Positions 7,028 through 49,585 are shown, counted from the first letter of the stretch. The stretch is 64,000 nucleotides of DNA from Candidatus Poribacteria bacterium (GCA_965232235.1 OZ246960.1:1132479-1196478), one strand, 5' to 3'. The notes: generated by a model from the sequence alone, not told the origin. Numbers and translations are program-made.

Positions 7028-7038
7028 TAGGGGTATAA

Positions 7039-11892: not shown

Positions 11893-12469
11893 GATATGTC
11901 CTCCGATATTTGGATAGAAAGGATGGAAGCGCGGAAGGTTCGAAGATTCCTTTCCACACCGTCCGTGGTTTGATGATTGTTAGTTGGATTAGTCGAAAGG
12001 AGAGCAAGGAACGTGCCACGAGAAAAGGAGCGGATTACGCCGCGTTTTCGCACCTTGTGTGCACACGATTGGGCAGGGACTGTGCGCGTATTGCCCTGCT
12101 TCGTGCAGACGAATGTGATGGTAATTGTCCAGATTTAATGCAACAAAGCACAGGAGTTGTGCTTCATTGCAAACAGCAGAGATACTTGACAATCGCCATT
12201 ACACTCTTGTAGGGTGCAATCCCCATCGATTTCGTAGGTTGGGTTGAACGGAAATCCGAAAAGAAATAGCCCATAGAAAGAAGACATCTGACGTTACAAT
12301 CGACCCAAAACGCGGGACATTAAAGTGAAACCCAACTCCTGTATCAGATCGGCTGAGACCGAGCGAATAAATCAATTTATCCGATATTCAGCGCAAATTT
12401 CACGCCGCATGTAGGAGGGAATTCCGATTCCCAACTTGTCGCGATTCGGAGGAGATTTCACTGATTCTC

Positions 12470-12498
12470 GTTGGCATCGGATCCAAAATGTGATACGA
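12470..12498 (+). promoter_or_regulatory. conserved promoter of PhyH paralog 1
   Basis: TTGGCA (12470-12475), 17-nt spacer, TACGAT (12493-12498). About 30 of 40 nt are shared with the upstream region of paralog 2 at 20768-20796. Confidence 0.45.
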
Positions 12499-12578
12499 TG
12501 GTTTTGTGTTTGCCGAGGGGCATCAAGATGGCGGCGATGCCGCAGTTCGGCAGGCTAAACGACATGAGGAGGATTAAC

Positions 12579-13388
12579 ATGAGTGAACATCTCATCTCGT
12601 CAAAGGAAATGGTGCAGTTTGTAGCTTCAGGTTACCTGAAGTTCGAGAGGATGGTGCCGAAGGATGTGTCGGACGCATGTCTGGAGGACATGAAGAATCA
12701 CCGCGGCTATCTCGAGGTGGGCACGCCGTTTGAGGAGACGTGGCCCAAGGGGACGCCGCTCGGCGATATGTTCCGTTTGCCGCAGGTCAAAGGGCTGATC
12801 CATTCGTTGGTCGGTCCAAATCCGGTCTATGACCATCACGCGGTGCATCTGCAGCGGGCGAACAGTATGAAGGGACCGGACACGCACCAAGACTCGGTCA
12901 TCGATTTTCGAGAGAACTATTTCGACATCCAGTTGTCGTTCTTCGCGCACGACACGCCCGACGAGATGGGTGGGACGTTCCTGATCCCGGGATCGCATTT
13001 CCGAAATGTCCGCACCGGCGAGATCCGCGGCTATCAGCAGATCCCCGGCAAGATCTGGGCGACATGCCCCGCCGGCACGATGTACGTCTGGAACACGCGA
13101 GTCTGGCACGGCGCGCGAAGCAACCATACCGATCGGGATCGCTACATGTACAAGGTGCGGCTCAACCCGTCGCGTCCCCAGGTGCGCAATTTCGATACCT
13201 CCGATATCGACGACCCGAAGATTGGAAGCATTCTCTCGAAGGGTCACGGCTGGGAAGGCAGCGACATGCGGTATGAGCTGATGAAGCGCGTCCAGTTGTG
13301 GCGGTACGTCTCCGATCAGCCCGACTACGATATCGGCGAGCGTTTCATGCGCAGGATTGAGTATCAGCCGCAGCGCATGTCGGCATGA
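12579..13388 (+). CDS. phytanoyl-CoA dioxygenase (PhyH) family Fe(II)/2-oxoglutarate oxygenase, paralog 1
   Basis: GAGGAGG RBS then ATG 12579. 269 aa. 'HQDSVIDF' HxD facial triad plus distal 'WHGARSNH'. About 90% identical to 21202-22011. Confidence 0.6.
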   Translation: MSEHLISSKEMVQFVASGYLKFERMVPKDVSDACLEDMKNHRGYLEVGTPFEETWPKGTPLGDMFRLPQVKGLIHSLVGPNPVYDHHAVHLQRANSMKGPDTHQDSVIDFRENYFDIQLSFFAHDTPDEMGGTFLIPGSHFRNVRTGEIRGYQQIPGKIWATCPAGTMYVWNTRVWHGARSNHTDRDRYMYKVRLNPSRPQVRNFDTSDIDDPKIGSILSKGHGWEGSDMRYELMKRVQLWRYVSDQPDYDIGERFMRRIEYQPQRMSA

Positions 13389-13480
13389 ATCGAGAGAAGA
13401 TAACCGACGATATGATTATTGAAGGATTCGTACGATGAAGCGTTGGATTTCACAATCCTCAACCCAACTTGCGCACCGCA

Positions 13481-13532
13481 TGTAGGAGCGATCTCCGAAT
13501 CGCGACCAGTCGGGAATCGGATTTCCTCCTAC
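13481..13532. repeat. REP-like GTAG-headed palindromic element (full copy)
   Basis: TGTAGGAGCGATCTCCGAATCGCGACCAGTCGGGAATCGGATTTCCTCCTAC, with terminal inverted repeats GTAGGAG/CTCCTAC. Related copies at 20624, 40011, 40163, 12410 (inverted), 31900 (inverted) and 48620 (inverted). Confidence 0.6.
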
Positions 13533-13557
13533 CCAAATCGTGTAGCTCCAGGCGATT

Positions 13558-16113
13558 TCATTTACTGACCAACATCCTCCGACTCGCCCTAAAATCCCCT
13601 GCCGCAAGCGTGCAAAAATACACGCCCGTCGCAACAACTTCCCCGCGTTCATTCCGTCCGTCCCAATACGCCGCGCGGTCCCGGCTCCGATACACACCCG
13701 CCGGCTGGAAGCCCACCGCCAATGTCCGAACCACCCGCCCGTGCACGTCATAGACTGTCAGCCTGATGTCCGCCGCTTCCCTCAGCTGATACGGTATCCA
13801 CGTTTCAGGATTGAACGGATTCGGGTAATTCGGCAACAGAGCCGTCTCGCTCGGAATGCTTGACTCCCGTGTCAACGTCATCAAGAGCCGTTCAAGCGCG
13901 AGAATCCCACTCTGTACGGTTGGATCTGCCGTCTCCAACCCCTCAGCATCAGCCAACCACCTCCGTACAGTCTCCGCCTTGAGCGCCCCAAGTCCATCCG
14001 CGCGGCTGGGCGGCGACGCCGCCGCATGTCCGAACGCCCCCGCCACCAACTCCAAATCGTGAAGGTTCACCACCCCATCCCCGTTGATATCCGCGTCGTT
14101 TTGTCCCATTTGCCCAACATTGGCGGCGACCAACACCAAGTCCAGGATGTTTACCACGCCATCCTGATTTACATCCGTTGCGAGCGCTTTAACATTGATT
14201 GTATCGCGTTTCAAGTCCCATAGTAGAATTGTGCCATCGTGACTCCCACTAGCAAGCGTTAGCCCATCGGGAGAGAAGGCAACGGAATCGACACTACTCG
14301 ATTGCCCCTCAAGGGTGCGCAGGTGTTCGCCAGTACGGACATCCCATAAACGGATCGTGCCGCGGTCGCCTACCCGCCAACTCCCACTCCCACTAGCAAG
14401 CGTGGATCCATCGGGAGAGAACGCAATGCAATGGATCCCCGACCAACGCGTGTGTGTAATGAAGATCCGCCGGTGTTCACTCGTACGGGTATCCCACAGC
14501 CGAATCGTATTGTCCCGTCCCCCGCTTGCAAGCGTAAGTCCATCCGGCGAAAACGCAACGGCAGTGACCTGGCGCGTATGTCCCTCAAGGATTTGCAAGC
14601 CTTTCCCAGTTCGTGCATCCCACAAACGTATCGTTGTATCGCGGCTCTCAAAGGCACCGCTGCCACTGGCAAGTTTCAAACGATCGGGAGAAAATGCCAG
14701 GGTAGTGACATCTCCCCTATGCCCCCTAAGAATCTGAAGGATTTCCCCGGTGCGGGTATCCCACAACCGGATTTTATTGTCCTTGCCGCCGCTAGCAAGC
14801 GTCAACCCATCGGGAGAGAAGACCACAGAATACACGCTAGAATGGACATTGTACCTATTGCCCTCAAGGGTATGTAGGTCGCCCCAGGTACGAGTATCCC
14901 ACAACCGAATCGTGTTGTCGCCCCACCCACTTCCGCTGGCAAGCGTTAATCCATCCGGGGAAAAAGCAACTGAATGAACCTGACCTGTATGTCCTTTGAG
15001 CGCGTGAAGCCTTTCTCCGGTATGGACATTCCACAGGCGAATCGTACCGTCCGAACTCCCGGCGATTGTAAGCCCATCGGGGGAAAATGCAACGGAGGTG
15101 ACTGGAACCCCATGTCCATCCAAGGTCAGCAGGGATTCGCCAGTGCGAACATCCCAAAATCGAACTGTATTGTCCCAACGCCCGATGGCAAGCGGGAGTC
15201 CGTCAGGGGAGAACGCTAGGGACAGAACCGAATGTCCTTCATAGGTCTGCAGACCTTCCCCAGTACGGACGTTCCAAAACCGAATTGTATTGTCTCTACT
15301 CCCGCAGACTAGTGTTAACCCATCGGGAGAGAATGCAAGGGACGTGACCCCATCTGTATGCTCTTGAAGAGTCAGCAAGCCTTCGCCGGTGCGCACATCC
15401 CACAACCGGATTGTATTGTCGTCACTCGCACTGGCAAGCGTAAATCCATCCGGAGAGAACACTACCGATGTAACCGAATCTGTGTGCCTCTCCAAGGTGC
15501 GAAGGCTTTCGCCAGTCCGGAAATCCCATAGCTGAATTGTATCGTCGCGACTTGCGCTGGCGAGTGTGCGCCTGTCAGGGGAAAACGCAACGGAGGTAAC
15601 CACATCGGTATGCCCCTCAAGGGTTCGCAGGTGCGTCCCTGACCGCGTGTCCCACAAGCGGATTGTATCGTCCCAACCCCCGCTGGCTAACGTAGATCCA
15701 TCCGGGGAGAAGGTTACAGACGTGACCCAAATCCCATGGTCGAGGGTGTGTCTGTGTTCCCCGGTGCGGGCATCCCACAAAAGAATCGTATCATCCCAAC
15801 TCCCACCGGCAAGGGTGAGGCCATCGGGCGAGAACGCGACAGAACTGACCCAACCCGTATGCCCCGTGAGCAAGGAAAGCTCGGCACCGGAATTCGCATC
15901 ATACAGCCAAATACCGATGCTGGTTGCGACCGCTAGCAGGGCGCCGTCTGGCGAATATGCAACATTGCCAAATATCCAACCTTTGCCCAGTCGCATTTTG
16001 GCGCCTTCGGGGAGTTCCCATTGTTGTGGGTCTTGGGCGAGGGTGTTGAGTGTGAGAAGGATGGCGAGGAAGGGAAGGATTAGCTTGGAAATTATGTGTT
16101 TTCTGTTCAACAT
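13558..16113 (-). CDS. secreted WD40 beta-propeller protein with dockerin repeat pair and T9SS C-terminal sorting domain
   Basis: Signal peptide 'MLNRKHIISKLILPFLAILLTLNTLAQ'. About 18 WD40 units ('GHTxxVxSVAFSPDGxTLASGSxDxTIRLWD'). Dockerin 'DVNQDGVVNILDLVLVA...DINGDGVVNLHDLELVA'. C-terminus 'LLPNYPNPFNPETWIPYQL...AAYWDGRN...GVYFCTL' is a Por/T9SS CTD. Confidence 0.85.
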   Translation of the reverse strand: MLNRKHIISKLILPFLAILLTLNTLAQDPQQWELPEGAKMRLGKGWIFGNVAYSPDGALLAVATSIGIWLYDANSGAELSLLTGHTGWVSSVAFSPDGLTLAGGSWDDTILLWDARTGEHRHTLDHGIWVTSVTFSPDGSTLASGGWDDTIRLWDTRSGTHLRTLEGHTDVVTSVAFSPDRRTLASASRDDTIQLWDFRTGESLRTLERHTDSVTSVVFSPDGFTLASASDDNTIRLWDVRTGEGLLTLQEHTDGVTSLAFSPDGLTLVCGSRDNTIRFWNVRTGEGLQTYEGHSVLSLAFSPDGLPLAIGRWDNTVRFWDVRTGESLLTLDGHGVPVTSVAFSPDGLTIAGSSDGTIRLWNVHTGERLHALKGHTGQVHSVAFSPDGLTLASGSGWGDNTIRLWDTRTWGDLHTLEGNRYNVHSSVYSVVFSPDGLTLASGGKDNKIRLWDTRTGEILQILRGHRGDVTTLAFSPDRLKLASGSGAFESRDTTIRLWDARTGKGLQILEGHTRQVTAVAFSPDGLTLASGGRDNTIRLWDTRTSEHRRIFITHTRWSGIHCIAFSPDGSTLASGSGSWRVGDRGTIRLWDVRTGEHLRTLEGQSSSVDSVAFSPDGLTLASGSHDGTILLWDLKRDTINVKALATDVNQDGVVNILDLVLVAANVGQMGQNDADINGDGVVNLHDLELVAGAFGHAAASPPSRADGLGALKAETVRRWLADAEGLETADPTVQSGILALERLLMTLTRESSIPSETALLPNYPNPFNPETWIPYQLREAADIRLTVYDVHGRVVRTLAVGFQPAGVYRSRDRAAYWDGRNERGEVVATGVYFCTLAAGDFRASRRMLVSK

Positions 16114-16259
16114 TGTCGGTCCTATTATGGTAAAGTGTTGGGTTTCACTCGAATTGCGGCGATTTGGCGCGGAATGGAACATCGGACGTTTGCTTGGCGT
16201 GCGTGAATTCGCTTGGATTTTCGCTCAACCCAACCTACGAGCTCGCAATCTGAAAGGCT

Positions 16260-16503: not shown

Positions 16504-19029
16504 CTACTTACTGACGAGCATCCTGCGAGTGGCGGTGAAAGTGCCGGCATTTAAGGTGCAAAAATACACGCCCGTCGCAACAACTTCCCAGCGTTCATTC
16601 CGTCCGTCCCAATACGCCGCGCGGTCCCGGCTCCGATACACACCCGCCGGCTGGAAGCCCACCGCCAATGTCCGAACCACCCGCCCGTGCACGTCATAGA
16701 CCGTCAGCCTGATGTCCGCCGCTTCCCTCAACTGATACGGCAACCACGTCTCCGGATTGAACGGATTCGGGTAATTCGGCAACAGCGCCGTCTCGACCGG
16801 AATGCTTGACTCCCGTGTCAGTGTTGTCAAAAGCCGTTCAAGCGCGATAATCCCTCTCTTCACCGTTGGATCTGCCGTCTCCAACCCCTCGGCATCAGCC
16901 AACCACCTCCGTACATCTTCCGCCGTGATTGCCCCAAGTCCCTCCGCACGGCTGGGCGCCGCCGCCGCATGTCCAAACGCCACCGCAACCAACTCCAAAT
17001 CGTGAAGGTTGACAACCCCATCCCCGTTGACATCCGCGCCATCTCCGCCCAACTCCCCGAAACGTGCGGCGACCAACACTAAATCTAGGATGCTCACGAT
17101 TCCGTCGTGATTGACATCTGCCGATTTTGCTCGAATGAGGTCCGCGTGAGGGGTTACATCCCAAAGCAGGATTGCCCCATCCAAGCTGCCGCTGGCAAGC
17201 GTCAATCCGTCCGGGTTGAAAGCGGCGCTCCTCACTTCAGAGACATGTCCCTCGAACGTACCCAGCATATCCCCTGTAGCCGAATCCCACAGCCGGATGG
17301 TATGGTCGCTCGATCCACTGGCAAGCATCGCGCCATCCGGACTGAAGGTAACGCTCTCGATATAACCCGTATGTCCTTTCAGCGTCCGCAGCAGCGCACC
17401 CCTGCTCGTGTTCCACAGCCGCACGTTACGGTCACGATTCCCGCTGGCAAGCGTCAAGCCGTCGGGGCTGAATGCCAAACTCGTCACATTGGAGCTGTGT
17501 CCTTGAAGCGTCCGCCGGCGAGCACCTGTGACGGCATCCCATAGATGGATGGCGCCGTGGAAACTCCCGCTGGCAAGCGTCCTGCCATCGGGTGAATAGG
17601 CTACGGAAAGGACGATGTCCGTGTTGTCGTCAATCAGGCGCAGTTGCTCCCCCGAGGACACATCCCATACACGGACGGTGCTGTCCCAACCTCCACTTAC
17701 AAGGGTCAATCCGTCGGAACGGTACGCCACACCGGTAACCCAATGCGAATGTCCCCCAAGTGTCCGCCGCGCCCCGGTAACGGCATCCCAGAGATGTAGG
17801 CTGCCGTCCCTGCTCCCACCGGCAAACGTCGAGCCGTCGGGACTGTACGCCACGCAAATAATCTCCTCCTCGCCCGCCTGAAGCATTCGCACCTGCGCGC
17901 CCGCTGTTGTATCCCATAGACGGATGGCGCCGTCCCAACTCCCACTGATTACCTTATTCCCGTCCGGGCTGTACGCGATGCTGTTGATCCAAGATGAATA
18001 CCCGTTGATTGATCGCGCCAGATCGCCCGTCATTGTATTCCACAGGCGGATGGAATGGTCCCAACCCATGCTTACGAGTGTTTTCCCGTCCGGGCTGAAC
18101 GCAACCATCGGGTTATACGCACGACTGCTCCCGCTGGTGCCGGCGGCATCCTCTAACGTAAATAGTTCATCACCAGTGTCCGGGTTCCAGAGACTGGCCG
18201 TGCCGAACCAGCCCCCACTGGCGAGCATCTTTCCGTTGGGGCTGTATGCCAGGCTATTAACTGAAATCCTGTCCGATTCAAGCGTGCGAACGTGTTCACC
18301 GGTGCGGGCATCCCACAATCGAATGCCGCCAACCCAGCTCCCGCTTGCGAGTGCATTTCCATCCGGACTGTACGCCACGCTATGAACCTCCCACGTATGC
18401 CCCTCCTCAAGCGTCTGTTTGTGCGCCCCCGTACTCACGTCCCACAGACGGACCTCGCTCGAACTCCCGCTGGCGAGAGTTCCTCCGTCCAGACTAAACG
18501 CCACCGTAGGCACCATCCAGTCATGCCCTTCAAGCGCCCGTAGGTGCTCGCCTGTTCCCACATCCCATAGATGGATGGTGCCCTCAAAACTCCCGCACGC
18601 AACCGTTCCGCCATCCGGACTGAACGCCAGGCTTAGCAAGCCGGATTTGATCCTCTCAAGCGTCTGTTTATGCGCACCTGTGACCGCGTCCCAGAGGTAG
18701 ATTCCGTCCCACCTCACAGTCGCCAGCGTCGATCCATCCGGACTGAATGCCATATTCTCGACCCACGCCGTGCTTTCGTCAAGCAGGGCAATCTCTTGAA
18801 AGGTTGTTGTGTCGTAGAACCAAATTCCGAGGCTGCTTGCCACGGCGAGGCGTGCGCCATCCGGGGAGTAGGCGACGGGACCGGTCAGAGCGCCTTTGCC
18901 CAGCCGCATGGTGGCTCCTTCCGGCAACCCCCATGGCGATACGTCTTGGGCGAAGGCGTTGACCAAAATCAGGACAGAAAGCAACACAAGGCTAGATGAG
19001 ATTAACCGCGCTTTTTCGATTGACATCAT
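16504..19029 (-). CDS. secreted WD40 beta-propeller protein with dockerin repeat pair and T9SS C-terminal sorting domain (tandem paralog)
   Basis: 841 aa. Signal peptide 'MMSIEKARLISSSLVLLSVLILVNAFAQ'. Same architecture as 13558-16113. The 3' ~470 nt are nearly identical to those of that paralog. Confidence 0.85.
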   Translation of the reverse strand: MMSIEKARLISSSLVLLSVLILVNAFAQDVSPWGLPEGATMRLGKGALTGPVAYSPDGARLAVASSLGIWFYDTTTFQEIALLDESTAWVENMAFSPDGSTLATVRWDGIYLWDAVTGAHKQTLERIKSGLLSLAFSPDGGTVACGSFEGTIHLWDVGTGEHLRALEGHDWMVPTVAFSLDGGTLASGSSSEVRLWDVSTGAHKQTLEEGHTWEVHSVAYSPDGNALASGSWVGGIRLWDARTGEHVRTLESDRISVNSLAYSPNGKMLASGGWFGTASLWNPDTGDELFTLEDAAGTSGSSRAYNPMVAFSPDGKTLVSMGWDHSIRLWNTMTGDLARSINGYSSWINSIAYSPDGNKVISGSWDGAIRLWDTTAGAQVRMLQAGEEEIICVAYSPDGSTFAGGSRDGSLHLWDAVTGARRTLGGHSHWVTGVAYRSDGLTLVSGGWDSTVRVWDVSSGEQLRLIDDNTDIVLSVAYSPDGRTLASGSFHGAIHLWDAVTGARRRTLQGHSSNVTSLAFSPDGLTLASGNRDRNVRLWNTSRGALLRTLKGHTGYIESVTFSPDGAMLASGSSDHTIRLWDSATGDMLGTFEGHVSEVRSAAFNPDGLTLASGSLDGAILLWDVTPHADLIRAKSADVNHDGIVSILDLVLVAARFGELGGDGADVNGDGVVNLHDLELVAVAFGHAAAAPSRAEGLGAITAEDVRRWLADAEGLETADPTVKRGIIALERLLTTLTRESSIPVETALLPNYPNPFNPETWLPYQLREAADIRLTVYDVHGRVVRTLAVGFQPAGVYRSRDRAAYWDGRNERWEVVATGVYFCTLNAGTFTATRRMLVSK

Positions 19030-20905: not shown

Positions 20906-21202
20906 ATGCCAAAAGTTCAGGACATCTTAGTGTTCTTCCAAACAAGCCCCGGTCTCGACATCACCCCGTCCGCGTGGTCGCGGTACGAAGCGTCGAAGGG
21001 GACGGGGATCAAGAATCTTGTCGAGGAGACGGAACCCCCCTACAAACACGCGTTGGCGGCGATGCGCGACGGATGGCAGGTCATCCAGATGAGCGAAATG
21101 AAGCATCGCAGCGCCGACGACGGATACGAACTTGGACCGCTGCCGTATCAGACGGTGTTGTCCCGGTTCAATGAACTACAAGACACGGAGGAAGGTTCAT
21201 AA
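20906..21202 (+). CDS. small hypothetical protein inserted between the conserved promoter and PhyH paralog 2
   Basis: RBS 'AGGAGAGGATCT' then ATG 20906. 98 aa. Stop overlaps the PhyH start (TAATG). No counterpart at the paralog-1 locus. Confidence 0.35.
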   Translation: MPKVQDILVFFQTSPGLDITPSAWSRYEASKGTGIKNLVEETEPPYKHALAAMRDGWQVIQMSEMKHRSADDGYELGPLPYQTVLSRFNELQDTEEGS

Positions 21203-22011
21203 TGAACGAGCATCTCATCTCATCCAAGGAAATGGCGCAATTTGTGGCTTCCGGCTACCTGAAGTTCGAAGAGATGGTGCCGAAAGATCTGTCCGACGCA
21301 TGCCTTGAGGACATGAAAAACCACCGCGGTTATCTTGAGGTCGGCACGCCGTTCGAGGAGACGTGGCCAAATGGCTCCCCGCTCGGCGATGTGTTCCGTC
21401 TGCCGCAGGTCAAAGGGCTTATCCATTCTTTGGTCGGTCCGAATCCGGTGTATGACCACCACGCGGTGCATCTGTTGCGGGCAAACAGCATGGCGGGACC
21501 GAACATGCACCAAGACTCGGTCATCGACTTCCGCGAGAACTATTACGACATCCAGTTGTCGTTCTTCGCGCACGACACCCCCGACGAGATGGGGGGTACG
21601 TTCCTGATCCCCGGCTCCCATTTCCGAAACGTGCGCACGTTCGAGGTTAAACTCTACCAACAAGTCGCCGGCAAAATCTGGGCGACATGCCCGGCGGGGA
21701 CGATGTATGTCTGGAACACACGCGTTTGGCACGGCGCGCGCAGCAACCATACCGATCAGGACCGGTATATGTACAAGCTGCGGCTCAATCCGTCGCAACC
21801 CCAGGTTCGCAATTTCGATACGTCCGATATCGACGACCCGAAGATCGGAAGTATTCTGTCGAAGGGTCACGGCTGGGAAGGGAATGACATGCGCTATGAA
21901 ATCATGAAGCGCGTCCAGATGTGGCGCTACGTCTCCGATCAGCCGGACTTTGACATCGGCGAGCGCTTCATGCGCCGAATCGAGTACCAACCGCAGCGGA
22001 TGTCGGCATAA
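21202..22011 (+). CDS. PhyH-family Fe(II)/2OG dioxygenase, paralog 2
   Basis: 269 aa. 'HQDSVIDF' and 'WHGARSNH' motifs. Close paralog of 12579-13388. Confidence 0.6.
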   Translation: MNEHLISSKEMAQFVASGYLKFEEMVPKDLSDACLEDMKNHRGYLEVGTPFEETWPNGSPLGDVFRLPQVKGLIHSLVGPNPVYDHHAVHLLRANSMAGPNMHQDSVIDFRENYYDIQLSFFAHDTPDEMGGTFLIPGSHFRNVRTFEVKLYQQVAGKIWATCPAGTMYVWNTRVWHGARSNHTDQDRYMYKLRLNPSQPQVRNFDTSDIDDPKIGSILSKGHGWEGNDMRYEIMKRVQMWRYVSDQPDFDIGERFMRRIEYQPQRMSA

Positions 22012-23963: not shown

Positions 23964-24773
23964 ATGGGCATACAAGACATGTTAGTTTCCGATAAAATCG
24001 GTGCGGAGGTTGCACCGCACCTGATACAACTCAGGCAAGAGGGCTGGTGCGTGCTGGAGGGTGTCATCCCCGAATCCGAAATCGACTCCGTGCGTGAATA
24101 TGTCGCGGCGTCGAGTGAGAAGGCGCTTGAGGCGTACACAAATGACTGGATAAGCATCATTGCCGGCGTACCCGATTTCGCGCCCTACCTCGCCGACGAG
24201 AGCGTGTTGGGGATTGTCAAGACTATGTTCAATCACCCGCACGTGCGAATCGCTCAAACCGAGCTGAAGACTATCGCGCCGCAAAACGGCGACGCACTTC
24301 TCCGTACCTACCATTCCGATTGGCCGCATGATCTCCGAGATCTATCGAAATCCGGGCATATCCACCAACCCTTCCCCGACATCACGATGGCGGTTATCAC
24401 GCTGTGGATGATCTCGCCGTTTACGAAAGAGAACGGCGGCACCTGGATTGTGCCGCGCAGCCACCGTGACACACGGAATCCGCGGGGAAACGACGGCATC
24501 GACCAGAACAAACCGATTCCGAACGAGATGCAGGTGACGGGCAGCGCCGGTAGCGTGCTGATGACGGACAGCCGTATTTGGCACACCGCCACGGCAAATC
24601 TGAGCGATGAGCCGCGGATTGCACTGTTGGCGCGCTATATTCCGTGGTGGGTCAGCGTGGAGATGGGGAAGCGCAATCGGGTGACGATACCGGCGGAGGT
24701 GTTCGCCGCCTTCCCGGAGAACGTGAAGCCGTTGTACCAGCACCGCGTGGATGTAGGAGGATCAAACGAGTGA
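23964..24773 (+). CDS. PhyH-family Fe(II)/2OG dioxygenase, divergent third copy
   Basis: 269 aa. 'YHSDWPHD' (HxD) and distal 'IWHTATAN' His. Cupin-like. Confidence 0.55.
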   Translation: MGIQDMLVSDKIGAEVAPHLIQLRQEGWCVLEGVIPESEIDSVREYVAASSEKALEAYTNDWISIIAGVPDFAPYLADESVLGIVKTMFNHPHVRIAQTELKTIAPQNGDALLRTYHSDWPHDLRDLSKSGHIHQPFPDITMAVITLWMISPFTKENGGTWIVPRSHRDTRNPRGNDGIDQNKPIPNEMQVTGSAGSVLMTDSRIWHTATANLSDEPRIALLARYIPWWVSVEMGKRNRVTIPAEVFAAFPENVKPLYQHRVDVGGSNE

Positions 24774-27262: not shown

Positions 27263-27588
27263 GTAACTTTCGACAATAAATCTCGCATTTTAACGAAATC
27301 ACGGCGCGCTAGCTACGCGGCCGTCCTGCTGGATTGACAAATCCAGCAAACCTCTCTCTAGCTACTCAGCTTTCATTCTTTCGCTCCAGAGGATCGGAAT
27401 GTCTGTAGAACACCGATTGCTTCAATATTCTGCACAGAGGAGATAAAGTGACCGATTAGGAAGAGCGATAGAGTTCCCATAGAAAATCCCATTACGCATA
27501 GCTTTACACCTGTATCGTGTTATCCGAATCGGAGCACCTTGCGTAAGTTCTGTGAACAAGAAGCTGGTTAACCACAAGGAGACACTCT

Positions 27589-30500
27589 ATGTTCAAAAAT
27601 CATTCTATTTCTGCCTTGATTTGCTTACTGTTCCTCACTGTAGGTTTTCAACATGTGTCCGCCCAATCACAGTTAGCCCAAGACACCTAAGCCATCTTTG
27701 AAGCGACTTGCCTGAACTGCCACGGCCCCGATGGCGCCTTTCGAGAAACACTCCTCATGGAACACAGCGAGCTTATTGACGGAGGCACTGTTGTTCCCGG
27801 AAATCCGAATGCCTCCGAGTTGTACAAGCGCCTCCTCGGTCCGACCGATAACGGCGTACAGATGCCGTTCGGTCAACCCCAGCTGCCCGCTCAATCCATT
27901 GACACAATCCGACGTTGGATTTTAGCCGGCGCACCCGAATGGTCGACAACTCGCATCACCGATGGTCGCTTTATCTCTCCTGCAGAAATTCTTGATACCA
28001 TTGAGACCCACCTCAACACCCTCTCATCGTTTGACCGCGCTTTTGCCCGATACTTCACACTCACCCATCTCTACAACGCGGGCGAGACACTCGAGATACT
28101 CAGTGAGTACCGCAATGCGCTCAACAAACTGGTCAACAGTCTTTCATGGGGAAGTACTATCACCAACCCGAAGCCCATCAACCCCCAAGCTACAATCTAC
28201 TACATCGACCTGCGGCATTACGAATGGGATGTCAACGACGGCTGGACGAAGATTGAGGAAGCGTATCCCTATCACATCTCGTTTCCTGAACATCTTGGGC
28301 TGCGTAATCAACTGGGGCGCTTGCAGGCACAGATGAAGACCGATGTGCCATCCGTGCATGTCGACTGGTTTATTGCGAACGCATCCACTCCTCCATTATA
28401 CCACGCCCTGCTTTCACTGCCGTTGACGGACAGGGACTTGGAGACCCGGCTGGAGGTTGATGTCGCTCGAAACCTTATCAACGCGCCCGGAGTTCGCGTG
28501 TGGCGGGCGGGGTTCAACAATTCCGGCGTCTCAAATCACAATCGCGTCGTAGAACGCCACATTTCTCGTTATGGAGCCTATTGGAAAAGCTACGACTTTG
28601 CAGGCAGTGTCGGGACACAGAATATCTTAACCAATCCTCTCTCGTTCACGCACGATGGCGGGGAGGCAATCTTCAATCTCCCAAACGGGTTGCAAGGTTA
28701 CTACCTTGCCAACTCCTCCGGTTTCCGGTTAGACGAAGCGCCGATAAACATTGTATCCAACCCGGCTGCCAGCGACCCCACGGTGCGCAACGGCATCTCC
28801 TGTATCGGTTGCCATACGGAGGGCATGAAAACATTTGACGACGAGGTGCGATCGGTAATTGAAAGCAATGCCAATCCGCCTTACAACAAAGCGCAGGCGC
28901 TGCGACTCTATGTGGAACAGTCAGTCATGGATGCCCGTGTAAGTGAAGACATGGACACATACAGGGTAGCGCTTGAAGCCACGGGTGGTACGTTTGGCGG
29001 TGTTGAGCCGGTTTCACGTTTCCACGAAGCGTTTCAGGGACCGATTGATGCAGCGTATGCTGCTGCTGTAGTCGGGTTGCAGACTGACACCTTCCTCGCA
29101 AGGGTACGTGAGAAAACCGGACTTCAGAACGTTGGCTTGCTGGCGCTGGACAACCCAAACGGGAGTGTGAAGCGAGACACCTGGACCTCTAGTTTTAGAG
29201 ACATAATTTCCGCATTGGACTACCCGGATCGGGTTGGAGAACCCCCGGTTGTGACGCAGCCCGATGTGTTACCGGGTGGGTATGTCCATATTCCGGACCC
29301 GAACCTTCGCACCTTCATCGCCGCTGAACTTGACAAACGCCCCAATGCTCCGATAACAGCGGAGGAGATGAAACGATTAAAAAACCTAGATCTGTGCAAG
29401 GGTGGGTGCGAAAAGGGTATCCGAGATTTGACAGGAGTGCAGTTTGCGATAAATCTAAGTCGGATAAATATATCACATAATCAGGTCTCCGACCTCTCAC
29501 CCATAGCGGGTTTAATCGAGTTGCGCGAACTCTGGATTACCGACAACCCTGTATCCGATATATCCCCTGTGAGAGGGTTAACCAACCTTACTCACCTAGG
29601 ATTTGAGCGCTGTCAGGTGTCCGATATATCTCCCGTGAAAGGTTTAATCAACCTCACTCACCTATACGTTCTGAGAAATACCATAACTGACCTGTCGCCG
29701 GTAGCGGGTTTAATTGAATTGCGCGAGCTCTTGACTCTTAATAACCTCTTTTCCGATATATCTCCCGTAAGAAACCTGACAAAACTCGTTCACTTAAATT
29801 TCGATAACACTTTGGTATCCGATATATCCGCTCTTGCGGGACTCATCAATTTGGAGCTTTTGGGTTTTACCAGTGCCCAAGTCTCCGATCTATCGCCGCT
29901 CGCGGGATTGATAAATCTGAGACATCTAAATATTCATCATAACTTCATATCCGACCTGTCCGCACTTACTGAATTAGTCGAATTGACGCATTTAGATTTT
30001 AGAGACAATCTCATTTCGGACTTAACTCCGTGTTCAGGCTTAACCAAATTGGTAGAATTGGAGCTTGATGGTAACAGAATATCGGATGTATCGCCCCTTG
30101 CAGGACTAACCGGGTTAAATCGTCTGGACATTTCATCCAATGCCATATCGGATGTATCGCCCCTTGCAGGCTTGACCAACTTAAAATGGTTAAGGGTTGC
30201 AGACAACGACATCTCGGATGTGTCGCCGCTTGCGAGGTTAACCAACCTGAGGTGGCTGGGGGTCTATAACAACAGAATCACTGACCTGTCACCTCTGAAA
30301 GGGTTACGCGAAAATACAACTCTGCTTTGGCACGGTAATCCGGTATTTCCCACAGACGCGCCGAAAATCGACGCCTCCTGGTTATGGGTTGTATTACCGT
30401 ACGTCCAGCCGAGTGGCAGTGAGGATTTACTATCAAAAGCGAGTGGTGGGACGGTGACAGAGGTGGAGGTCGCTACCCACGGCGCAATAGAGGGACAAGC

Positions 30501-31887
30501 TGTCGGCGATGACGTATGGACCTCCCGCAGACTCGCGCCTACGGGGTGGAACAACATTGACCTGATGCTTGGTAACCGCGAGGACACTTTCCGTTTTTCC
30601 CACATGCTTTACGGTACTGTATCCCTTTATTCACCGCGGGAGCAGGAAACGAACATGTACGTCGGAAGCCATAACGATTTCAAGGTCTGGCTCAACGGGG
30701 CTTTGATTTACCAGTCTTTGCGCTACCATTCGAGTGCGGATTACACAGATTTTCTCCCGGTCACGCTGGAGCAGGGAAGAAATGTGTTGTTGGTAGCGGT
30801 TGAGGCGAACTATAATTCCTTTTTCGGATTTGAATCAGGCACCGAATATACAGTGGCAACTGGTATCGGCTACGCCTTTTCTGAAACACCAATTCACATC
30901 GGCGATACCTTTACCTTCGATGTCCGTGCCGAGAATGTCTCCAACTTGGCGGGCTGGCAGTTCGATATCGCCTTCAATCCTGCCGTCCTCGAAGCGATTG
31001 AAATAAGCGAAGGCGATTTCCTGAAGACCGATGGCGGAGCGACTTTCTTCCAGAGCGGACGCATTGACAATGCGGAAGGAAAGATCACGGGGCTTAGTGG
31101 CGCGCGATTTGGGGACCTCGGAGTCAGCGGAAGCGGTTCCGTGCTTCAGGTGAGATTCAAGGCAATATCTGAAGGTGAGGCGCCAATAGCATTGCAGAAC
31201 TTCCTGTTCGGCTCTATCACGGAGGAAAGCATTAACGCGGCACCCCTTGAAATCCGAATCACCGTGCAGGATCGGCTACTGACCGGGGATGTAAACCGCG
31301 ACGGGGTCGTCAATATTCTCGATTTGATTCGCGTCGCGCGCTTGTTGGGACAAAGCGTAGCCGCTGACTCACCGGTGGATGTTAACGGCGACGGGATTAT
31401 CAACATCTTCGATCTCACGCTCGTGGCGCAGGGCATTGGGGGTGCCGCCGCACCCGCAGTTGCGACAGGGCGCGCCGATACGGCGACCATAGAGGCATGG
31501 ATTACACTCGCACGGCTTGAAGATGACGCTTCGATTTCTTTTCGGCAGGGCATTGCGAATCTTGAAAGTCTTTTAGCCTCGTTCATTGTTCCAGAAGAGA
31601 CGGCGTTGCTCGCCAACTATCCGAATCCGTTCAATCCTGAAACCTGGATACCCTACCAGTTGGCATCCCCGTCAGAGGTGACGCTCAAAATTTACGATAT
31701 GAACGGGAGAGTGGTTCGACGTTTGAATATGGGGCATCAGACGGCAGGGATGTACCGGAATCGCAACCGGGCGGCGTATTGGGACGGTCGGAACCAGAGT
31801 GGAGAATTCGTCGCTAGCGGTTTATATTTCTATACACTGAAGACAGGAAAGTTCGCGGCAACCCGCAAGATGCTGATAAGGAAATAG
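27589..31887 (+). CDS. giant secreted multidomain protein: signal peptide, PSCyt1-like CxxCH domain, second CxxCH region, LRR block, cohesin-like module, dockerin, T9SS CTD
   Basis: Signal peptide 'MFKNHSISALICLLFLTVGFQHVSAQ' (27589-) is in frame with the body 27691-31887 but separated by one TAA (27688-27690). The track ORF starts at 27757 (1376 aa), the first downstream ATG. Motifs: 'CLNCHG...VVPGNPNASELYKRL...MPFG' (planctomycete cytochrome-C-like), 'CIGCHTEG', about 14 LRRs ('LxxLxxLxxLxIxxNxISDLSPLAGL'), cohesin-like 'GDTFTFDVRAENVSNLAGWQFDIAFNPAVLEAIEISEGDF', dockerin 'DVNRDGVVNILDL...DVNGDGIINIFDL', and the Por CTD. Confidence 0.7.
30880..31270 (+). other. cohesin-like module within the giant protein
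   Basis: 'IHIGDTFTFDVRAENVSNLAGWQFDIAFNPAVLEAIEISEGDFL...GSVLQVRFKAISEGEAPIAL' follows the type-I cohesin pattern 'GDTVxVPVxxxNVxNIAGFQFDLxYDPSVLE'. Confidence 0.55.
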
Positions 31888-34271: not shown

Positions 34272-34815
34272 TGACAGTCCTCAGAGATTGTGTTGGAGAC
34301 GATGTCCCTGTTTCAACGAATGAGGGGCATTCGTCAGGAGGATGGGATAGTACCAAAAGAACGGCAGTATAGCATTCACGCAATCGCGCGTCAACGAAAA
34401 TCTCGCTCTGTACCAAGGTGTTCTTCCGTAATGCCAGGGAATTACCGGATTGGGACTGCTCGCCAACCTAGATTTACCGCTTAACATTGCCAAGCGTTTG
34501 TGTTACAATCGCGTCCCGTAAGGATGAGAGGAATGGTGCACGTCATAAGGATGGGCTCTTCGCTTTTGAACACGCAAACGGAGGTACTAAAATTTCTAAT
34601 CATCAATTCGAAGATTGCCCAGAGCCGCCTGAGAGAATTGCGAGCATGGTATTCTATCGCCGTCGCTGTGGTAACAATATCGCATTCACTACGGCATCTC
34701 TTCAGTCTTCCTTATCGGTTATTGATCTGTCGCAAACAACGCCCCGTGTCGCGCTCGCTATCGACTAGTTTGATCTCAGTTGATTTGCCGTTATCTGTTC
34801 TTTGGAGATAAATCT

Positions 34816-36846
34816 ATGAAAACACGACATTTTCGAGCCACGATTTTCCTGTCAATCTGTCTTGCTCTACCGTTAACCGCATCGGCACAAGTCGTAGATG
34901 TCCCGGACTCCAACCTCCGCACCGTGATCGAGAAGGCGCTGAGATTGGCGCCGGGCGACCCGATTACCCAGGCGAAGATGATGGCTTTGAATCGTCTTGA
35001 CGCTAGAAACGCCAATATTAGCAACTTAACCGGACTGGAGGTTGCCATCAACCTGACAAACCTGAACCTTGCGAGTAACATGGTATCAGATATATCGCGA
35101 GTGGCGACCTTAACCAATCTGACAGATTTGAATCTTGCGAACAACATGGTATCGGACCTGTCGCCTGTAGCGGGTTTAATCAACCTGACAAACCTGAATC
35201 TTGCCAAAAACGCGATATCGAACATATCACCCGTGTCGGGCTTACCCAACTTGACGGCGTTGGCTATCGACATCAACACAGTATCGGATATATCACCCGT
35301 ATCGAGCTTAATCAACCTGACAGCGCTGGATTTTCAGAACAACACAATAACCGATATATCGCCTGTGACGAACTTGACCAAATTGGTATTTCTGGTTCTT
35401 CAGAATAACACGATATCGGATATATCACCTGTGGCGGGTTTAACCAACCTGACACTACTATTTCTAGGGAACAACACGATATCGGACATATCACCTCTGG
35501 TGGAAAACACGGGGTTGGGGAGTGGAGACAGGGTTGACCTGCATGGAAACGCCCTCAACTACGCATCCATCCACACGCACGTTCCAACCTTAGAAGAAAG
35601 AGGCGTCGAAATAATCTTCGACAACCGAACACCTCGGAGCATTCGCATCGTCTCGGGCGATGATCAAGAGGGATCGTCCGGTTCAGCGCTCGCAAGCCCG
35701 TGTATCGTTGAAGTGCAGGATGGGAATAGTGTAGCGTTCGAGGGGGTGCCGGTTACATTCGCCGTCACGGCGGGCGGCGGGACACTCAGCGCCGCTAACA
35801 CGACGACAGACGCCAACGGTAGGGCGGAGAGCACCCTTACATTAGGGCCAAATTCAGGCGTGAACACAGTCACGGATTCAGTTACAGGGATTCAGGAGGA
35901 GCCAACGTTCAACGCCGAAGGAATCCGGATACCCAAGGCGTTTTGGATAATCTTCGGGATTGACCAACAAGGGCTGGTCGGTGAAGCGCTTGCTAATCCG
36001 TTTATCGTTGAAGTGAGAGACCAATCCGGCGAACCCATGTCGGGTGCGCAGGTCATGTTCTCCGTCACGGCGGGCGGCGGGACGCTGAGTGTGACAACTG
36101 CCGCAACTGATAGCAATGGTCGGGTAGAGAGTGTCCTAACATTGGGACCGGATCCGGGAACAAACACCGTGACTGTATCTGTGACAGGGATCGAAGAGGA
36201 GCAGTCTGTTAGTGCCACTGCCGAACCTCCCCCGATACCGGAGGATGTAAATAGGGACGATGTGGTGAATATCTTGGATTTGGTGGCGGTCGCGGCGAAC
36301 CTCGGTAATATGGGGACCGACTTGGCGGCGGATGTCAACGGGGATGGGGTTGTGAACATCCTGGATTTAGTGGTCGTAGCGGGTGCGCTTGGGAACGCGG
36401 CGGCGCCAGCTTCGGATCCACGAGCATTGGCGATGCTGACGGCTGCGGAAGTGGGTCGCTGGTTGGCTCAAGCGCAAACACTGGACTTGACCGATGGAAC
36501 AACCCAAATGGGTGTGCTGGTGCTAGAGCAACTCATGGCTGCCTTGACACCGGAGGAGACGCTATTGTTGCCGAACTATCCGAATCCGTTCAACCCGGAG
36601 ACGTGGATACCTTACCAACTCTCACGCGATGCCGAGGTCACGCTGTCGATTTATGATGCCGACGGTTTCATGGTTCGTCGACTGGAGTTGGGGCATCAAC
36701 TAGTGGGCTATTACAGGGATCGGGGTAAGGCGGTGTATTGGGATGGCCGCAACGATGTTGGTGAAAGGGTGGCAAGCGGCGTGTATTTCTATCACTTGGC
36801 AGCAGGGGATATCTCCGCCACGCGGAAGATGCTCATCCTGAAATAG
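34816..36846 (+). CDS. secreted LRR protein with two bacterial Ig-like (Big) domains, dockerin and T9SS CTD
   Basis: RBS 'GGAGATAAATCT' then ATG 34816. Signal peptide 'MKTRHFRATIFLSICLALPLTASAQ'. About 9 LRRs, two Big-like repeats ('VTFAVTAGGGTLS...TDANGRAESTLTLGP'), dockerin 'DVNRDDVVNILDL...DVNGDGVVNILDL', and the Por CTD. Confidence 0.8.
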   Translation: MKTRHFRATIFLSICLALPLTASAQVVDVPDSNLRTVIEKALRLAPGDPITQAKMMALNRLDARNANISNLTGLEVAINLTNLNLASNMVSDISRVATLTNLTDLNLANNMVSDLSPVAGLINLTNLNLAKNAISNISPVSGLPNLTALAIDINTVSDISPVSSLINLTALDFQNNTITDISPVTNLTKLVFLVLQNNTISDISPVAGLTNLTLLFLGNNTISDISPLVENTGLGSGDRVDLHGNALNYASIHTHVPTLEERGVEIIFDNRTPRSIRIVSGDDQEGSSGSALASPCIVEVQDGNSVAFEGVPVTFAVTAGGGTLSAANTTTDANGRAESTLTLGPNSGVNTVTDSVTGIQEEPTFNAEGIRIPKAFWIIFGIDQQGLVGEALANPFIVEVRDQSGEPMSGAQVMFSVTAGGGTLSVTTAATDSNGRVESVLTLGPDPGTNTVTVSVTGIEEEQSVSATAEPPPIPEDVNRDDVVNILDLVAVAANLGNMGTDLAADVNGDGVVNILDLVVVAGALGNAAAPASDPRALAMLTAAEVGRWLAQAQTLDLTDGTTQMGVLVLEQLMAALTPEETLLLPNYPNPFNPETWIPYQLSRDAEVTLSIYDADGFMVRRLELGHQLVGYYRDRGKAVYWDGRNDVGERVASGVYFYHLAAGDISATRKMLILK

Positions 36847-46413: not shown

Positions 46414-48315
46414 TTACTTCCCCACCAACATCTTGCGCGTGGCAGTGAAATCACCTGCGGTCAGCGTGTAGAAATAGACGCCATTTGCCACCGTCTCCCC
46501 CATCTCATTCCGCCCGTCCCAATACGCCGCACGCTCGCGGCTCCGATATGCACCGGCTCGCTGGTGTCCGACTTCCAGTTTTCGAACCGCCTGCCCTCTT
46601 ATGTCATATATTGTCAACACCACCTCCGCTGGATGCGCCAGTTGATACGGTATCCATGTCTCCGGATTGAACGGATTCGGATAGTTTGGCAGGAGAAGCG
46701 TAGCTGTTGGCGTTGACGCACTGGCTGGAGCTGAAAGATTCGGCACGTGGTTTGAGTCGCCCACCGCTGTCATTTGCTTGATCTCGCCCCACGTTGCGGG
46801 AGTCGTGAAATCCCACAACAGGATCGTGCCATCCCAACTCGCGCTGGCAAGCCCGCCACTATTGGGCAAGAAGTCAACTGAAGTGACGGGCGCCGAATGC
46901 CCGTCAAGCGTTTGAAGAAGTTCACCGGTGCGGGCGTTCCAGAACCGTATAGAGTTTGTGTTCGTGTCGGCGAGAGGGTGGTCGCCGCTGCCGCTGGCAA
47001 GTAGGCGCCCATCGGGCGACAATGCGGCGGACACGAAATAGTCCGTGTGCGCTTCAAAAGTTTGCAGGACTTCTCCCGAATGCACATCACACAAGAGAAT
47101 AAAGTGGTGACCACGTCGAATAACAAGTGTGGTTCCATCAGGCGAAAACGCGAGTACACCGCCCGTAAGTCCGGGAAGGGTTCTCAACTTCTCCCCGGAG
47201 TGGGCATCCCAAATCTCAACCGCCTCGGCACCACCGACGGCGAGCGTCTTTCCATCGGGCGAGAATGCGGATCTCCCAACCGTGTGCACCAGTGTGCGTA
47301 GATTCTCCCCAGTGCGGGTATCCCACAAACGAATCGATCCTCTGCTCGCAGTTGCCAGCCTGCCCCCGTCGGGCGAGAAAGCTATTGAGTCGACTCCCTC
47401 TGTGTGCCCCTCTAGGATTTGACCCTCCTCGCCGGTGCGGGTATCCCAGAATCTAACGGTATCGTCGTACCAGCCGCCTCCACTCGCAAGCACGTCTCCG
47501 TTGGGTGAGAAAGCCACGCAACCGACCGTGTGTGAATGTCCCTCAAGTGTCCGCTCCTGTTCCCCGGTGCGTGTGTCCCACAACTTAATCCTGCCATCTC
47601 GGCTCAACCTAGGATTCACGCTGTGCGGTCTTCCCGCACTGGCAAGGGTAAGTCCGTCGGGCGAGAACGCGACCGAGCGTACCGGCTCCGCATGACCTTC
47701 AAGCGTATGTGACTTATTTCCGGTCTGGACATTCCACAACATAATCGCACCGTCTCTGCCTCCGCTGGCAATCGTCAATCCATCGGGCGAGAAGGCTATG
47801 GTGTCGACCGATTCCAAGTGTCCCTCAAGCATTCGCTTGAGTTCTACGTTCCACACATCCCATAAACGGATAAGTTTGTCTTCGCCCGCACTGGCAAGCG
47901 TGGATCCATCGGGCGAGAACCGTACCGAGCGAACCGATCCCCCATGCCCTTCAATGGTTTCAAAGAGTGTACCGCTGCGGACATTCCATCCCCGAACCGT
48001 TCCGTCCGCCCCTCCGCTTGCAAGCGTGTTGCCGCTGGGGGAAAACGCGACCGTAAGAACTGAATCCGTATGCCCCGTGAGGAATTTGAGCGCGACGCCG
48101 CTGCGTGCATCATACATCCATATATCTTTATGAGTCGCAGCCGCTATCCGCCTCCCATCCGGCGAATATGCAATCTCGGTTACCGGTGCTTTTCCGATGC
48201 GCATCTTGGCGCGCCCGGGCAATCCCCATCGTGTAGATTCCTGGGCATAACTGCTCCGCAGAAACACGACGGAAACAAACAATAGGCAAAACCTGAAAAT
48301 CCAAGAGGTTCTCAT
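46414..48315 (-). CDS. secreted WD40 beta-propeller protein with T9SS CTD (no dockerin)
   Basis: Signal peptide 'MRTSWIFRFCLLFVSVVFLRSSYAQ', conserved 'WGLPxxAKMRIGK' head, WD40 units, Por CTD. Confidence 0.8.
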   Translation of the reverse strand: MRTSWIFRFCLLFVSVVFLRSSYAQESTRWGLPGRAKMRIGKAPVTEIAYSPDGRRIAAATHKDIWMYDARSGVALKFLTGHTDSVLTVAFSPSGNTLASGGADGTVRGWNVRSGTLFETIEGHGGSVRSVRFSPDGSTLASAGEDKLIRLWDVWNVELKRMLEGHLESVDTIAFSPDGLTIASGGRDGAIMLWNVQTGNKSHTLEGHAEPVRSVAFSPDGLTLASAGRPHSVNPRLSRDGRIKLWDTRTGEQERTLEGHSHTVGCVAFSPNGDVLASGGGWYDDTVRFWDTRTGEEGQILEGHTEGVDSIAFSPDGGRLATASRGSIRLWDTRTGENLRTLVHTVGRSAFSPDGKTLAVGGAEAVEIWDAHSGEKLRTLPGLTGGVLAFSPDGTTLVIRRGHHFILLCDVHSGEVLQTFEAHTDYFVSAALSPDGRLLASGSGDHPLADTNTNSIRFWNARTGELLQTLDGHSAPVTSVDFLPNSGGLASASWDGTILLWDFTTPATWGEIKQMTAVGDSNHVPNLSAPASASTPTATLLLPNYPNPFNPETWIPYQLAHPAEVVLTIYDIRGQAVRKLEVGHQRAGAYRSRERAAYWDGRNEMGETVANGVYFYTLTAGDFTATRKMLVGK

Positions 48316-48785
48316 CGATTGACGCTCCCTTCCGGCAAGCCGTGAATTACTTCGTGAGTTCAATAGTCAAGCGGGGTCAAAATATTTCCAGCACAAGATG
48401 TTAACGGTTAAATTAACGGCGATTTGGTGGACTTCTCGCTAAGTATTTAACCTAAGTCGCCACCTTTGTAGCACGATCTGTTAGATTGTGCTTGTGATGC
48501 GCAAACTGACAGTTCGCGCTACGAAATATCCACAATTAATGAACTATTCTCAACCAAAAACAGTGGTGCATGTCCAAAATCTTGTAAGTGGCAACTTGGG
48601 TTACTTAATAAAAGTAAGGAGGTCGCGACCTGGAGATCGCTCCTACGGACAGGTCGAGTGTCATAAGGCAGTTTACGGCACACGGAGTGTGCCTACTACT
48701 TTGAAACGTTATTATATAGACTTAGCGAGAAGACCATTTAGCCGGATTCTGTAAAATCCGATCACGGTGTAGGAACGTCTGAAAT

Positions 48786-49349: not shown

Positions 49350-49585
49350 GATTGAAAACCTCCTTAAGTTCCAAATGTCAGAATTTTGAAGAAAATGGTA
49401 ATTTCCGATTGATAAACATGGTAAAATTGAACTAGTAAACAGTTGTCTAATCGAAGAGATGTCCATGCACCGCAAGACCCATCCGCGACTCATATGGATT
49501 TGCGGCGAGCGCCGGAAATCTCTTTCTTCCGTTTCCAGTAGCGTTGATACTCTTCATATTTTTGGCGCGAGGAGTAGAACCAACC

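Follow-up and report, generated by a model that had tools for sequence, protein, structure and literature searches.

The 64,000-nucleotide stretch of Candidatus Poribacteria DNA analyzed here (the window) carries, at positions 27589–31887, a locus from a multigene family that is lineage-specific to Candidatus Poribacteria and has been strongly expanded there. The first half of an intact family member consists of a Sec signal peptide, a conserved head of ~510 residues with two CxxCH motifs, 10–15 internalin-type leucine-rich repeats (LRRs) and a variable β-sandwich. In the second half, a single cohesin is followed by a single dockerin, and a conserved linker then leads to a TIGR04183-type sorting domain at the C-terminus. 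In the window copy, an in-frame TAA leaves the signal peptide and the start codon, with its ribosome-binding site, cut off from everything else, and this copy is most likely a recent, inactive pseudogene. We therefore favor, as reasonably probable overall, a reading in which this Poribacteria family provides surface-targeted two-heme modules and the window holds a disabled copy of one of them. The features of the locus are collected in Table 1.

A search of a 5.8-billion-protein collection returned 4154 matches. The best 120 of these are 1250–1500 residues long with 62–83% identity, and all carry the LRR, Cohesin, Dockerin_1 and FlgD_ig set of Pfam domains. When one genome per species was scanned with the head, at least 568 relatives were found. 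The best 77 of these loci all lie in 19 Candidatus Poribacteria metagenome-assembled genomes, many of them closed chromosomes of 5–6.8 Mb, with up to 11 of them from one genome, so that some genomes hold at least 11 copies. About 65 of the 77 have an intact open reading frame (ORF) of 1360–1620 residues with the head, a cohesin motif, two F-hands and the tail motif. Tandem pairs of family members are common in other Poribacteria genomes, as at 5647–9798 and 10001–14293 of the locus L078, and at 1501–5469 and 5691 onward of L082. The spot of the upstream paralog is occupied in the window by a radical-SAM gene.

The preliminary description of this locus had treated 27589–31887 as one continuous gene for a giant protein. 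The frame is not open over this range, and its 1432 codons would make the product large rather than giant. From the ATG at 27589, 33 codons are translated as MFKNHSISALICLLFLTVGFQHVSAQSQLAQDT and are followed by the TAA at 27688–27690. Beyond it, the frame resumes as AIFEATCLNCHG… and is open for 1398 codons, up to the stop at 31885–31887. In an alignment of 120 sequences, the column of the TAA holds Tyr in 115, Phe in one and no residue in three, i.e. Tyr in 115 of 116 homologs, and the intact homologs all read …AQSQLAQD[TA]YAIFEA.CL.CHG across this region. The closest relative retrieved as DNA, P0124 in L078, has TAC at the corresponding codon, and the lesion is a single TAC-to-TAA substitution at codon 34.

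Because of this stop, the window copy cannot make the polypeptide described above. At least 45 codons precede the first CxxCH in every reconstructable gene among the 77 loci from other genomes. The next start in the window copy, at 27757, lies 3′ of that CxxCH, and the class I cytochrome c motif is not part of any translatable exported ORF. The public annotation (P0001, 100% identical, from a 5,626,040-bp contig) likewise starts the protein at 27757, where the preceding sequence holds no motif comparable to the AAGGAG found before the ancestral ATG. Stop-codon readthrough or an alternative start was considered and rejected, as the interval from the TAA to 27757 lacks any ATG, GTG or TTG and recoding of TAA is unsupported. 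The rest of the gene shows purifying selection in comparison with L078 (ratio of nonsynonymous to synonymous substitution rates, dN/dS, of 0.16). A promoter and terminator scan gave signals at or below chance. The gene is set between a radical-SAM gene upstream and a convergent β-propeller gene downstream, with no obvious operon.

Table 1. Features of the locus and the basis on which each was assigned.
Feature	Position	Strand	Basis or remark
Shine-Dalgarno AAGGAG	27576–27581	+	Read from sequence; 7 nt 5′ of ancestral ATG 27589
Ancestral start and 33 codons, Sec-type signal peptide (…FQHVSA/QSQ…)	27589–27687	+	Translation; aligns with N-termini of intact homologs
In-frame TAA, disabling lesion	27688–27690	+	Stands at conserved Tyr codon
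Longest remaining ORF, 1376 residues	27757–31887	+	Without signal peptide or first CxxCH; identical to P0001
Class I cytochrome c/PSCyt1 subdomain	27691–27945	+	CxxCH (CLNCH) 27709–27723; invariant Met-Pro 27862–27867 (candidate axial Met)
Remainder of ~510-residue conserved head, α/β	27946–29220	+	Second CxxCH (CIGCH) 28801–28815; no Pfam model
Five-stranded sheet followed by CxxCH, probable P460/c′-β-like heme pocket	28474–28890	+	
Linker and LRR N-terminal cap	29221–29448	+	Predicted local distance difference test (pLDDT) <50 for residues 512–534 and 537–541
Thirteen tandem 22-residue internalin-type LRRs (xNLxxLxxxxNxIsDisPLagL)	29449–30306	+	Exact 22-residue register
Recombination cassette (LRR and β-sandwich)	29341–30840	+	Sliding-window DNA identity to L078 gene
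Variable β-sandwich, possibly PA14/galactose-binding-like	30340–30858	+	No Pfam match
Single cohesin module	30850–31278	+	Pfam, 39.8 bits; PDB profile matches
Dockerin, two F-hand calcium loops (31288–31323, 31378–31413)	31285–31431	+	Pfam; PDB dockerin matches; motif scan
Conserved linker from dockerin to sorting domain	31432–31617	+	Common to other genes of the window with dockerin and C-terminal domain
C-terminal sorting domain of TIGR04183/FlgD_ig type (NYPNPFNPETW) and stop codon	31618–31887	+	

The domain content was established by scanning Pfam and NCBIfam, at their curated cut-offs, with the conceptual translation of 27691–31884 (1398 residues). Of the models that the preliminary description had named for such a check, the following pass: PSCyt1 (24.9 bits, cut-off 22), LRR_4 (152.7 bits in seven stretches, cut-off 27), Cohesin (PF00963; 39.8 bits, cut-off 24.1, covering profile positions 12–130 of 139), Dockerin_1 (PF00404; 37.6 bits, cut-off 22.9) and the TIGR04183 sorting domain (37 bits, cut-off 23). 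FlgD_ig is also matched (36.2 bits, cut-off 27), and Pfam Por_Secre_tail reaches 24.2 bits, under its cut-off of 27. The PSCyt-like CxxCH head, the second CxxCH and the canonical dockerin pair are thus borne out. The two CxxCH motifs, at positions 41 and 405 of the full-length protein, are invariant in 117–120 of 120 homologs. The LRRs are of the proposed internalin type, and their number, given before as about 14, is thirteen exact repeats plus caps. The profile of the following β-sandwich gave only a weak match, to the PA14 domains of RsgI3 (E = 0.029). In the homolog P0138, BetaGal_ABD2 (26.6 bits, cut-off 23) is matched 3′ of the first LRR block, at a place that may or may not correspond to the β-sandwich of the window gene.

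By homology, the module at 30850–31278 is a cohesin. Compared with PDB sequences, the family cohesin profile matches cohesins only, the best being ScaB (3l8q, E = 4e-12), 5g5d (an anchoring-protein cohesin region, E = 1.2e-9) and SdbA. Profile positions 9–128 of 143 align to the B. cellulosolvens scaffoldin cohesin 1tyj, and the match to 2y3n is also near full-length. The assignment to cohesins made earlier therefore stands, but the type I label is not supported, as the profile best matches ScaB, SdbA and modules of the B. cellulosolvens ScaA type. The two dockerin loops, DVNRDGVVNILD and DVNGDGIINIFD, start 30 residues apart, and every calcium ligand (D1, N3, D5 and D12) is present in both. 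Cohesin and dockerin are separated by only ~5 residues.

The N-terminal ~85 residues of the head are a class I cytochrome c, as its profile retrieves FoxE (E = 5e-10), cytochrome c-552, CcoP and cytochrome c6 from the PDB. Neither Pfam nor the PDB sequences gave a match for the following ~430 residues. Fatty acid cis/trans isomerase (PF06934, CTI) was tried as a candidate and rejected, with 17–21 bits against a cut-off of 25 over only ~70 residues. An AlphaFold2 prediction from 41 close paralogs only reached a pLDDT of 31, and relatives of ~40% identity were needed in the alignment to obtain a pLDDT of 90.8 and a predicted template modeling score of 0.84 for head residues 1–510. In this model, five strands (residues 270–340) precede the second CxxCH (residues 371–375). 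Strands followed by CxxCH is also the order found in cytochrome P460, and the second heme is probably held in a P460/c′-β-like, ligand-binding sheet pocket of the predicted structure. A Foldseek search of the PDB with the head model gave no match, and a profile of the sheet and CxxCH did not recover P460/c′-β among PDB sequences. As a whole, the head has no Pfam model and no solved relative, based on the Pfam, PDB sequence and Foldseek searches.

The head is not confined to this family. Against 1.84 billion cluster representatives (clusters defined at 50% identity), it gave 5336 matches at E ≤ 1e-3 and 1515 at E ≤ 1e-30. Distant heads, of ~40% identity, occur alone or joined to Ser/Thr kinase, FHA, EGF, TM7S3 and terpene-cyclase-like domains. 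The proteins are named “hypothetical protein” or “mono/diheme cytochrome c family protein”, and one is from Planctomycetota. Both CxxCH motifs are kept in 123 of 125 distant heads, and the invariant columns of a 68-sequence alignment include C7, C10, H11, M58, P59, C371, C374 and H375. Where the head is linked to a kinase or FHA domain in other phyla (P0228, P0271, P0272, P0254, P0266 and P0177), a single predicted transmembrane helix lies between the two, which would place the head outside the cytoplasm, as c-type heme attachment requires. The head of these proteins looks like an extracytoplasmic sensor domain. The gene neighborhood of a stand-alone head, P0194, was uninformative.

The regions of the family differ in their degree of conservation. 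Among 120 members, column conservation is ~0.9 in the head and 0.8–0.9 in the cohesin, dockerin, linker and tail, and drops to 0.5–0.75, with many indels, in the LRRs and β-sandwich. Median pairwise dN/dS values for 67 genes are 0.096 (head), 0.095 (sorting tail), 0.137 (dockerin), 0.164 (cohesin), 0.25 (LRR) and 0.25 (β-sandwich), with dS near saturation, so that these ratios are rough. Across 1130 repeats, the LRR framework is nearly fixed (L3, L6, N11, I/V13, S14, D15, S17, P18 and L22). Positions 4, 5, 7, 9, 10 and 12, which correspond to the concave face of internalins, have entropies of 3.1–3.9 bits, with an abundance of W, H, Y, R, D and E.

Comparison of the window gene with its relative in L078 identified a segment that differs sharply in identity from its flanks. 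The cassette of LRRs and β-sandwich is 93–100% (mostly 97–100%) identical in DNA sequence to L078 ~11750–13250. Outside the cassette, the same pair is 77–93% identical in the head and 65–93% from cohesin to tail. The transitions are sharp, and the intergenic flanks show no relation to each other. The dS values between the two genes are 0.04 for the LRRs, 0.13 for the β-sandwich, 0.76 for the head and 1.5 for the sorting domain, and neighboring phytanoyl-CoA dioxygenase (PhyH) genes are 88–91% identical between the two genomes. This pattern indicates a recent cassette transfer or gene conversion, as judged from the sequences. The converse mosaic is seen in L018 and L020, on one chromosome (OZ244829.1), which are 96.7% identical in the head, against 65% for the cassette and 68% for the tail. 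It follows from both mosaics that the conserved flanks act as recombination substrates, with the variable middle moving between copies. Purifying selection is strongest on the head and the sorting tail, and the concave face of the LRRs and the β-sandwich are variable and swapped by recombination.

We propose the following role for the intact copies. The protein would be exported by the Sec pathway, two hemes would be attached in the periplasm, and the sorting tail would take the protein to or across the outer membrane. At the surface, it would act as a targeted module, with the LRR/β-sandwich cassette choosing the ligand (on the host, the matrix or another microbe) and the constant two-heme head contributing a single conserved step of reaction or binding, of a redox or small-molecule (NO/NH2OH-type) kind. 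Cohesin and dockerin would tie family members and the many dockerin-bearing WD40 and LRR proteins of the same genome into surface assemblies.

Several points weigh against this proposal. Heme attachment, export, surface location and cohesin–dockerin contact are predicted, and so, from sequence homology, is the cohesin fold. A redox enzyme fused to 10–20 different LRR cassettes per genome is without a worked-out precedent. The preliminary description called the protein exported through type IX secretion (T9SS); the sorting domain itself is well matched, but T9SS export is an assumption, as Kamke et al. (2014, PMC3909097) report having found none of the structural genes for Por secretion in single-cell genomes of Poribacteria, and the 64-kb window has no gene for the T9SS machinery (SprA, PorV, PorU, GldKLMN). 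Finally, the dN/dS of 0.16 fits a very recent lesion in the window copy and equally fits a base-call error.

Potential partners are encoded nearby. Five ORFs of the window carry a dockerin (6449–7027, 13558–16182, 16504–19029, 34780–36846 and the gene under study), nine have the same sorting tail, and only the gene under study has a cohesin. The dockerins of the other four lie at 6884–7000, 14056–14175, 16999–17118 and 36244–36366. The genes at 13558–16182 and 16504–19029 (both − strand) and 34780–36846 (+ strand) encode WD40 or LRR and Big_1 proteins that end in a common cassette of dockerin, linker and sorting domain, and a tblastn query of the linker and C-terminal domain matched them at 13971–13561, 16914–16507 and 36445–36843 (from query residues 9–11). 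The ORFs 4875–6482 (signal peptide, LRRs and an unassigned domain) and 6449–7027, on the + strand, read as one gene with a frameshift near 6470, which would be the second disrupted repeat-protein gene in the window. Its dockerin lies at the C-terminal end, with no sorting tail.

Both recruitment of these neighboring dockerin proteins and head-to-tail polymerization, which the preliminary description had raised, are possible readings of the module content. A different view is that there is no pairing whatsoever between the cohesin-like and dockerin-like modules, which would serve instead as an immunoglobulin-like spacer and a calcium-stiffened stalk beside the sorting tail. WD40 and LRR proteins without a cohesin commonly end in the dockerin–linker–sorting domain unit, and cohesin- and dockerin-like modules are said, by Peer et al. 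in 2009, to be widespread outside cellulosomes, mostly without demonstrated partners. However, neither calcium loop departs in any way from the canonical pattern, purifying selection acts on the cohesin (dN/dS 0.16), and the tail-less dockerin protein of 4875–7027 would require a partner in order to remain on the cell. We consider such a spacer a minority possibility that deserves to be kept in view.

An error of base calling or assembly at the TAA, which would leave the gene intact and the full 1432-residue protein made, seems unlikely. The long open frame after the TAA and the purifying selection noted above would both suit an intact gene, and truncated entries of the family do exist on shallow contigs: frameshifts near the first CxxCH truncate the N-termini of P0013 and P0012 (from L081 and L082; ENA ERZ26693581, 7x and 5x contigs), and these are probably assembly errors rather than biology. 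The lesion in the window copy, in contrast, is a clean substitution rather than a homopolymer indel, the contig that carries it is 5.6 Mb long, and the housekeeping genes of the window are all intact. The public entry P0001 also begins at the downstream start. Inactivation of the window copy is therefore the interpretation that we retain.

Polymerization, with each dockerin binding the cohesin of the next copy to build fibers or a coat, would be in keeping with the presence of exactly one cohesin and one dockerin in every intact member and with the conservation of both modules across paralogs. Set against this are the spacing of the two modules, only ~5 residues apart, and the many other dockerin carriers that would compete. 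Known scaffoldins avoid self-recognition by using cohesins and dockerins of different types, which also counts against self-assembly. Since the dockerin protein of 4875–7027, without a tail, would depend on a cohesin partner for its retention on the cell, recruitment is favored over pure self-polymerization, which we regard as unlikely.

The two covalent heme motifs on a protein predicted to be exported might also suggest an extracellular electron-transfer cytochrome, and thus a conduit for respiration on external acceptors. However, there are only two hemes in ~510 residues and no multiheme wire, the second site resembles the ligand-binding pockets of P460/c′-β rather than bis-His relay hemes, and the same head is joined to kinases and FHA domains in other phyla. 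We consider this role very unlikely. Membership in a cellulosome-like, polysaccharide-degrading complex has next to no likelihood: cohesin and dockerin are the defining cellulosome modules, and, for Cloacimonadota, systems resembling cellulosomes and bearing T9SS-type tails have been inferred (PMC8542988), but neither the window gene nor any of the five dockerin proteins of the window carries a glycoside hydrolase, a carbohydrate-binding module or multiple cohesins, and with one cohesin in the window and WD40, LRR and Big_1 proteins as the dockerin carriers, the cellulosome was rejected as a candidate.

Elsewhere in the window, five WD40 β-propeller genes with TIGR04183/FlgD_ig-type tails occupy 46414–59119 (− strand), interrupted only by a SnoaL-like gene (48786–49493), and the WD40 part of 56831–59119 is degenerate. 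Three PhyH genes (12471–13388, 21202–22011 and 23964–24773, + strand) are present, two of them syntenic with L078; expansion of PhyH has been reported previously for Poribacteria. These genes, together with the many WD40 and LRR genes with sorting tails, match the description of Poribacteria by Kamke et al. (2014, PMC3909097).

That study reported abundant WD40 and LRR genes, many with TIGR04183. Its Table S8 lists POR3G_03130 as PSCyt1+LRR_4+Cohesin, as well as WD40+Cohesin+FlgD_ig+TIGR04183 and WD40+Dockerin genes, so that parts of the domain set were tabulated in 2014 but never interpreted. Our literature search found no paper meaningfully combining Poribacteria with cohesin or dockerin. 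The architecture was put forward in the preliminary description as a new one; the combination is indeed undiscussed in the literature searched, but it is not singular, being that of a family of hundreds, and it was already partly tabulated (PMC3909097). It is a genuine and recurrent architecture, which joins the repeat proteins of sponge symbionts and non-cellulosomal cohesin–dockerin proteins.

Few sponge symbionts are as abundant, and as poorly understood, as Poribacteria, whose repeat proteins are the leading candidates for host contact. The family is experimentally approachable through its constant two-heme head, its variable LRR cassette with signs of exchange and its cohesin/dockerin pair, and it sharpens the question left from 2014 of how proteins with T9SS-type tails exit cells in which no T9SS has been found. 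The ~510-residue head is of interest in its own right as a widespread domain, with more than 5000 sequence clusters, that is also present on bacterial receptor-type Ser/Thr kinases. More speculatively, the family could form a host-facing, non-cellulosomal cohesin–dockerin surface interactome of 10–20 or more proteins per genome, with a constant P460-like two-heme head for catalysis or sensing, a constant anchoring tail and LRR/β-sandwich recognition cassettes exchanged among copies and lineages. We advance this only tentatively. If true, these targeted redox receptors would make up a bacterial repertoire, driven by recombination and turned toward the sponge host, with export dependent on the C-terminal domain in a phylum in which no T9SS has been found.

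Several parts of the protein can be compared with known systems. The likeness of the head to cytochrome P460/c′-β is only structural and modest, and the poribacterial subdomain differs in sitting within a 510-residue head, beside a class I cytochrome c. With planctomycete PSCyt1 proteins and FoxE, the family has in common the N-terminal PSCyt1-type class I cytochrome c (CxxCH…MP…WIxxGA); in contrast to the planctomycete proteins, the window gene is without the usual partners PSCyt2/PSD1 (DUF1549/DUF1553), and its next 430 residues are without a Pfam model. The LRRs share with Listeria class 1 internalins (InlA, InlH) the 22-residue framework LxxLxLxxNxIsDIxPL and a variable concave face. An internalin ortholog (NF033189, InlA) was rejected, as 236.6 bits were obtained against a cut-off of 1600, in a long partial alignment to the LRR region only. 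Unlike InlA and InlH, the window gene lacks an inter-repeat Ig region as well as any LPXTG or GW anchor, and its flanking domains are entirely different.

The Poribacteria repeat proteins described earlier (PMC3909097) are from the same phylum and have the LRR_4/WD40 repeats, sorting domain and signal peptides of the window family. Their repeats were treated there only as generic host-interaction domains, and the two-heme head, the cohesin/dockerin pair, the family size and the cassette exchange are not discussed. For the cohesin–dockerin pair, the closest comparisons are the adaptor and anchoring scaffoldins of cellulosomes that carry a single cohesin (e.g. A. cellulolyticus ScaB, C. thermocellum SdbA), in which cohesin and dockerin on one polypeptide are normal, as here. 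Non-cellulosomal pairs are also known, e.g. in A. fulgidus and C. perfringens, and, for Cloacimonadota, a T9SS-type tail has been inferred on a cohesin scaffoldin (PMC8542988). In contrast to the scaffoldins, the window family is without carbohydrate-active enzymes or binding modules, its cohesin and dockerin are directly adjacent, and, in a Gram-negative organism, a T9SS-type tail replaces the SLH or sortase anchor.

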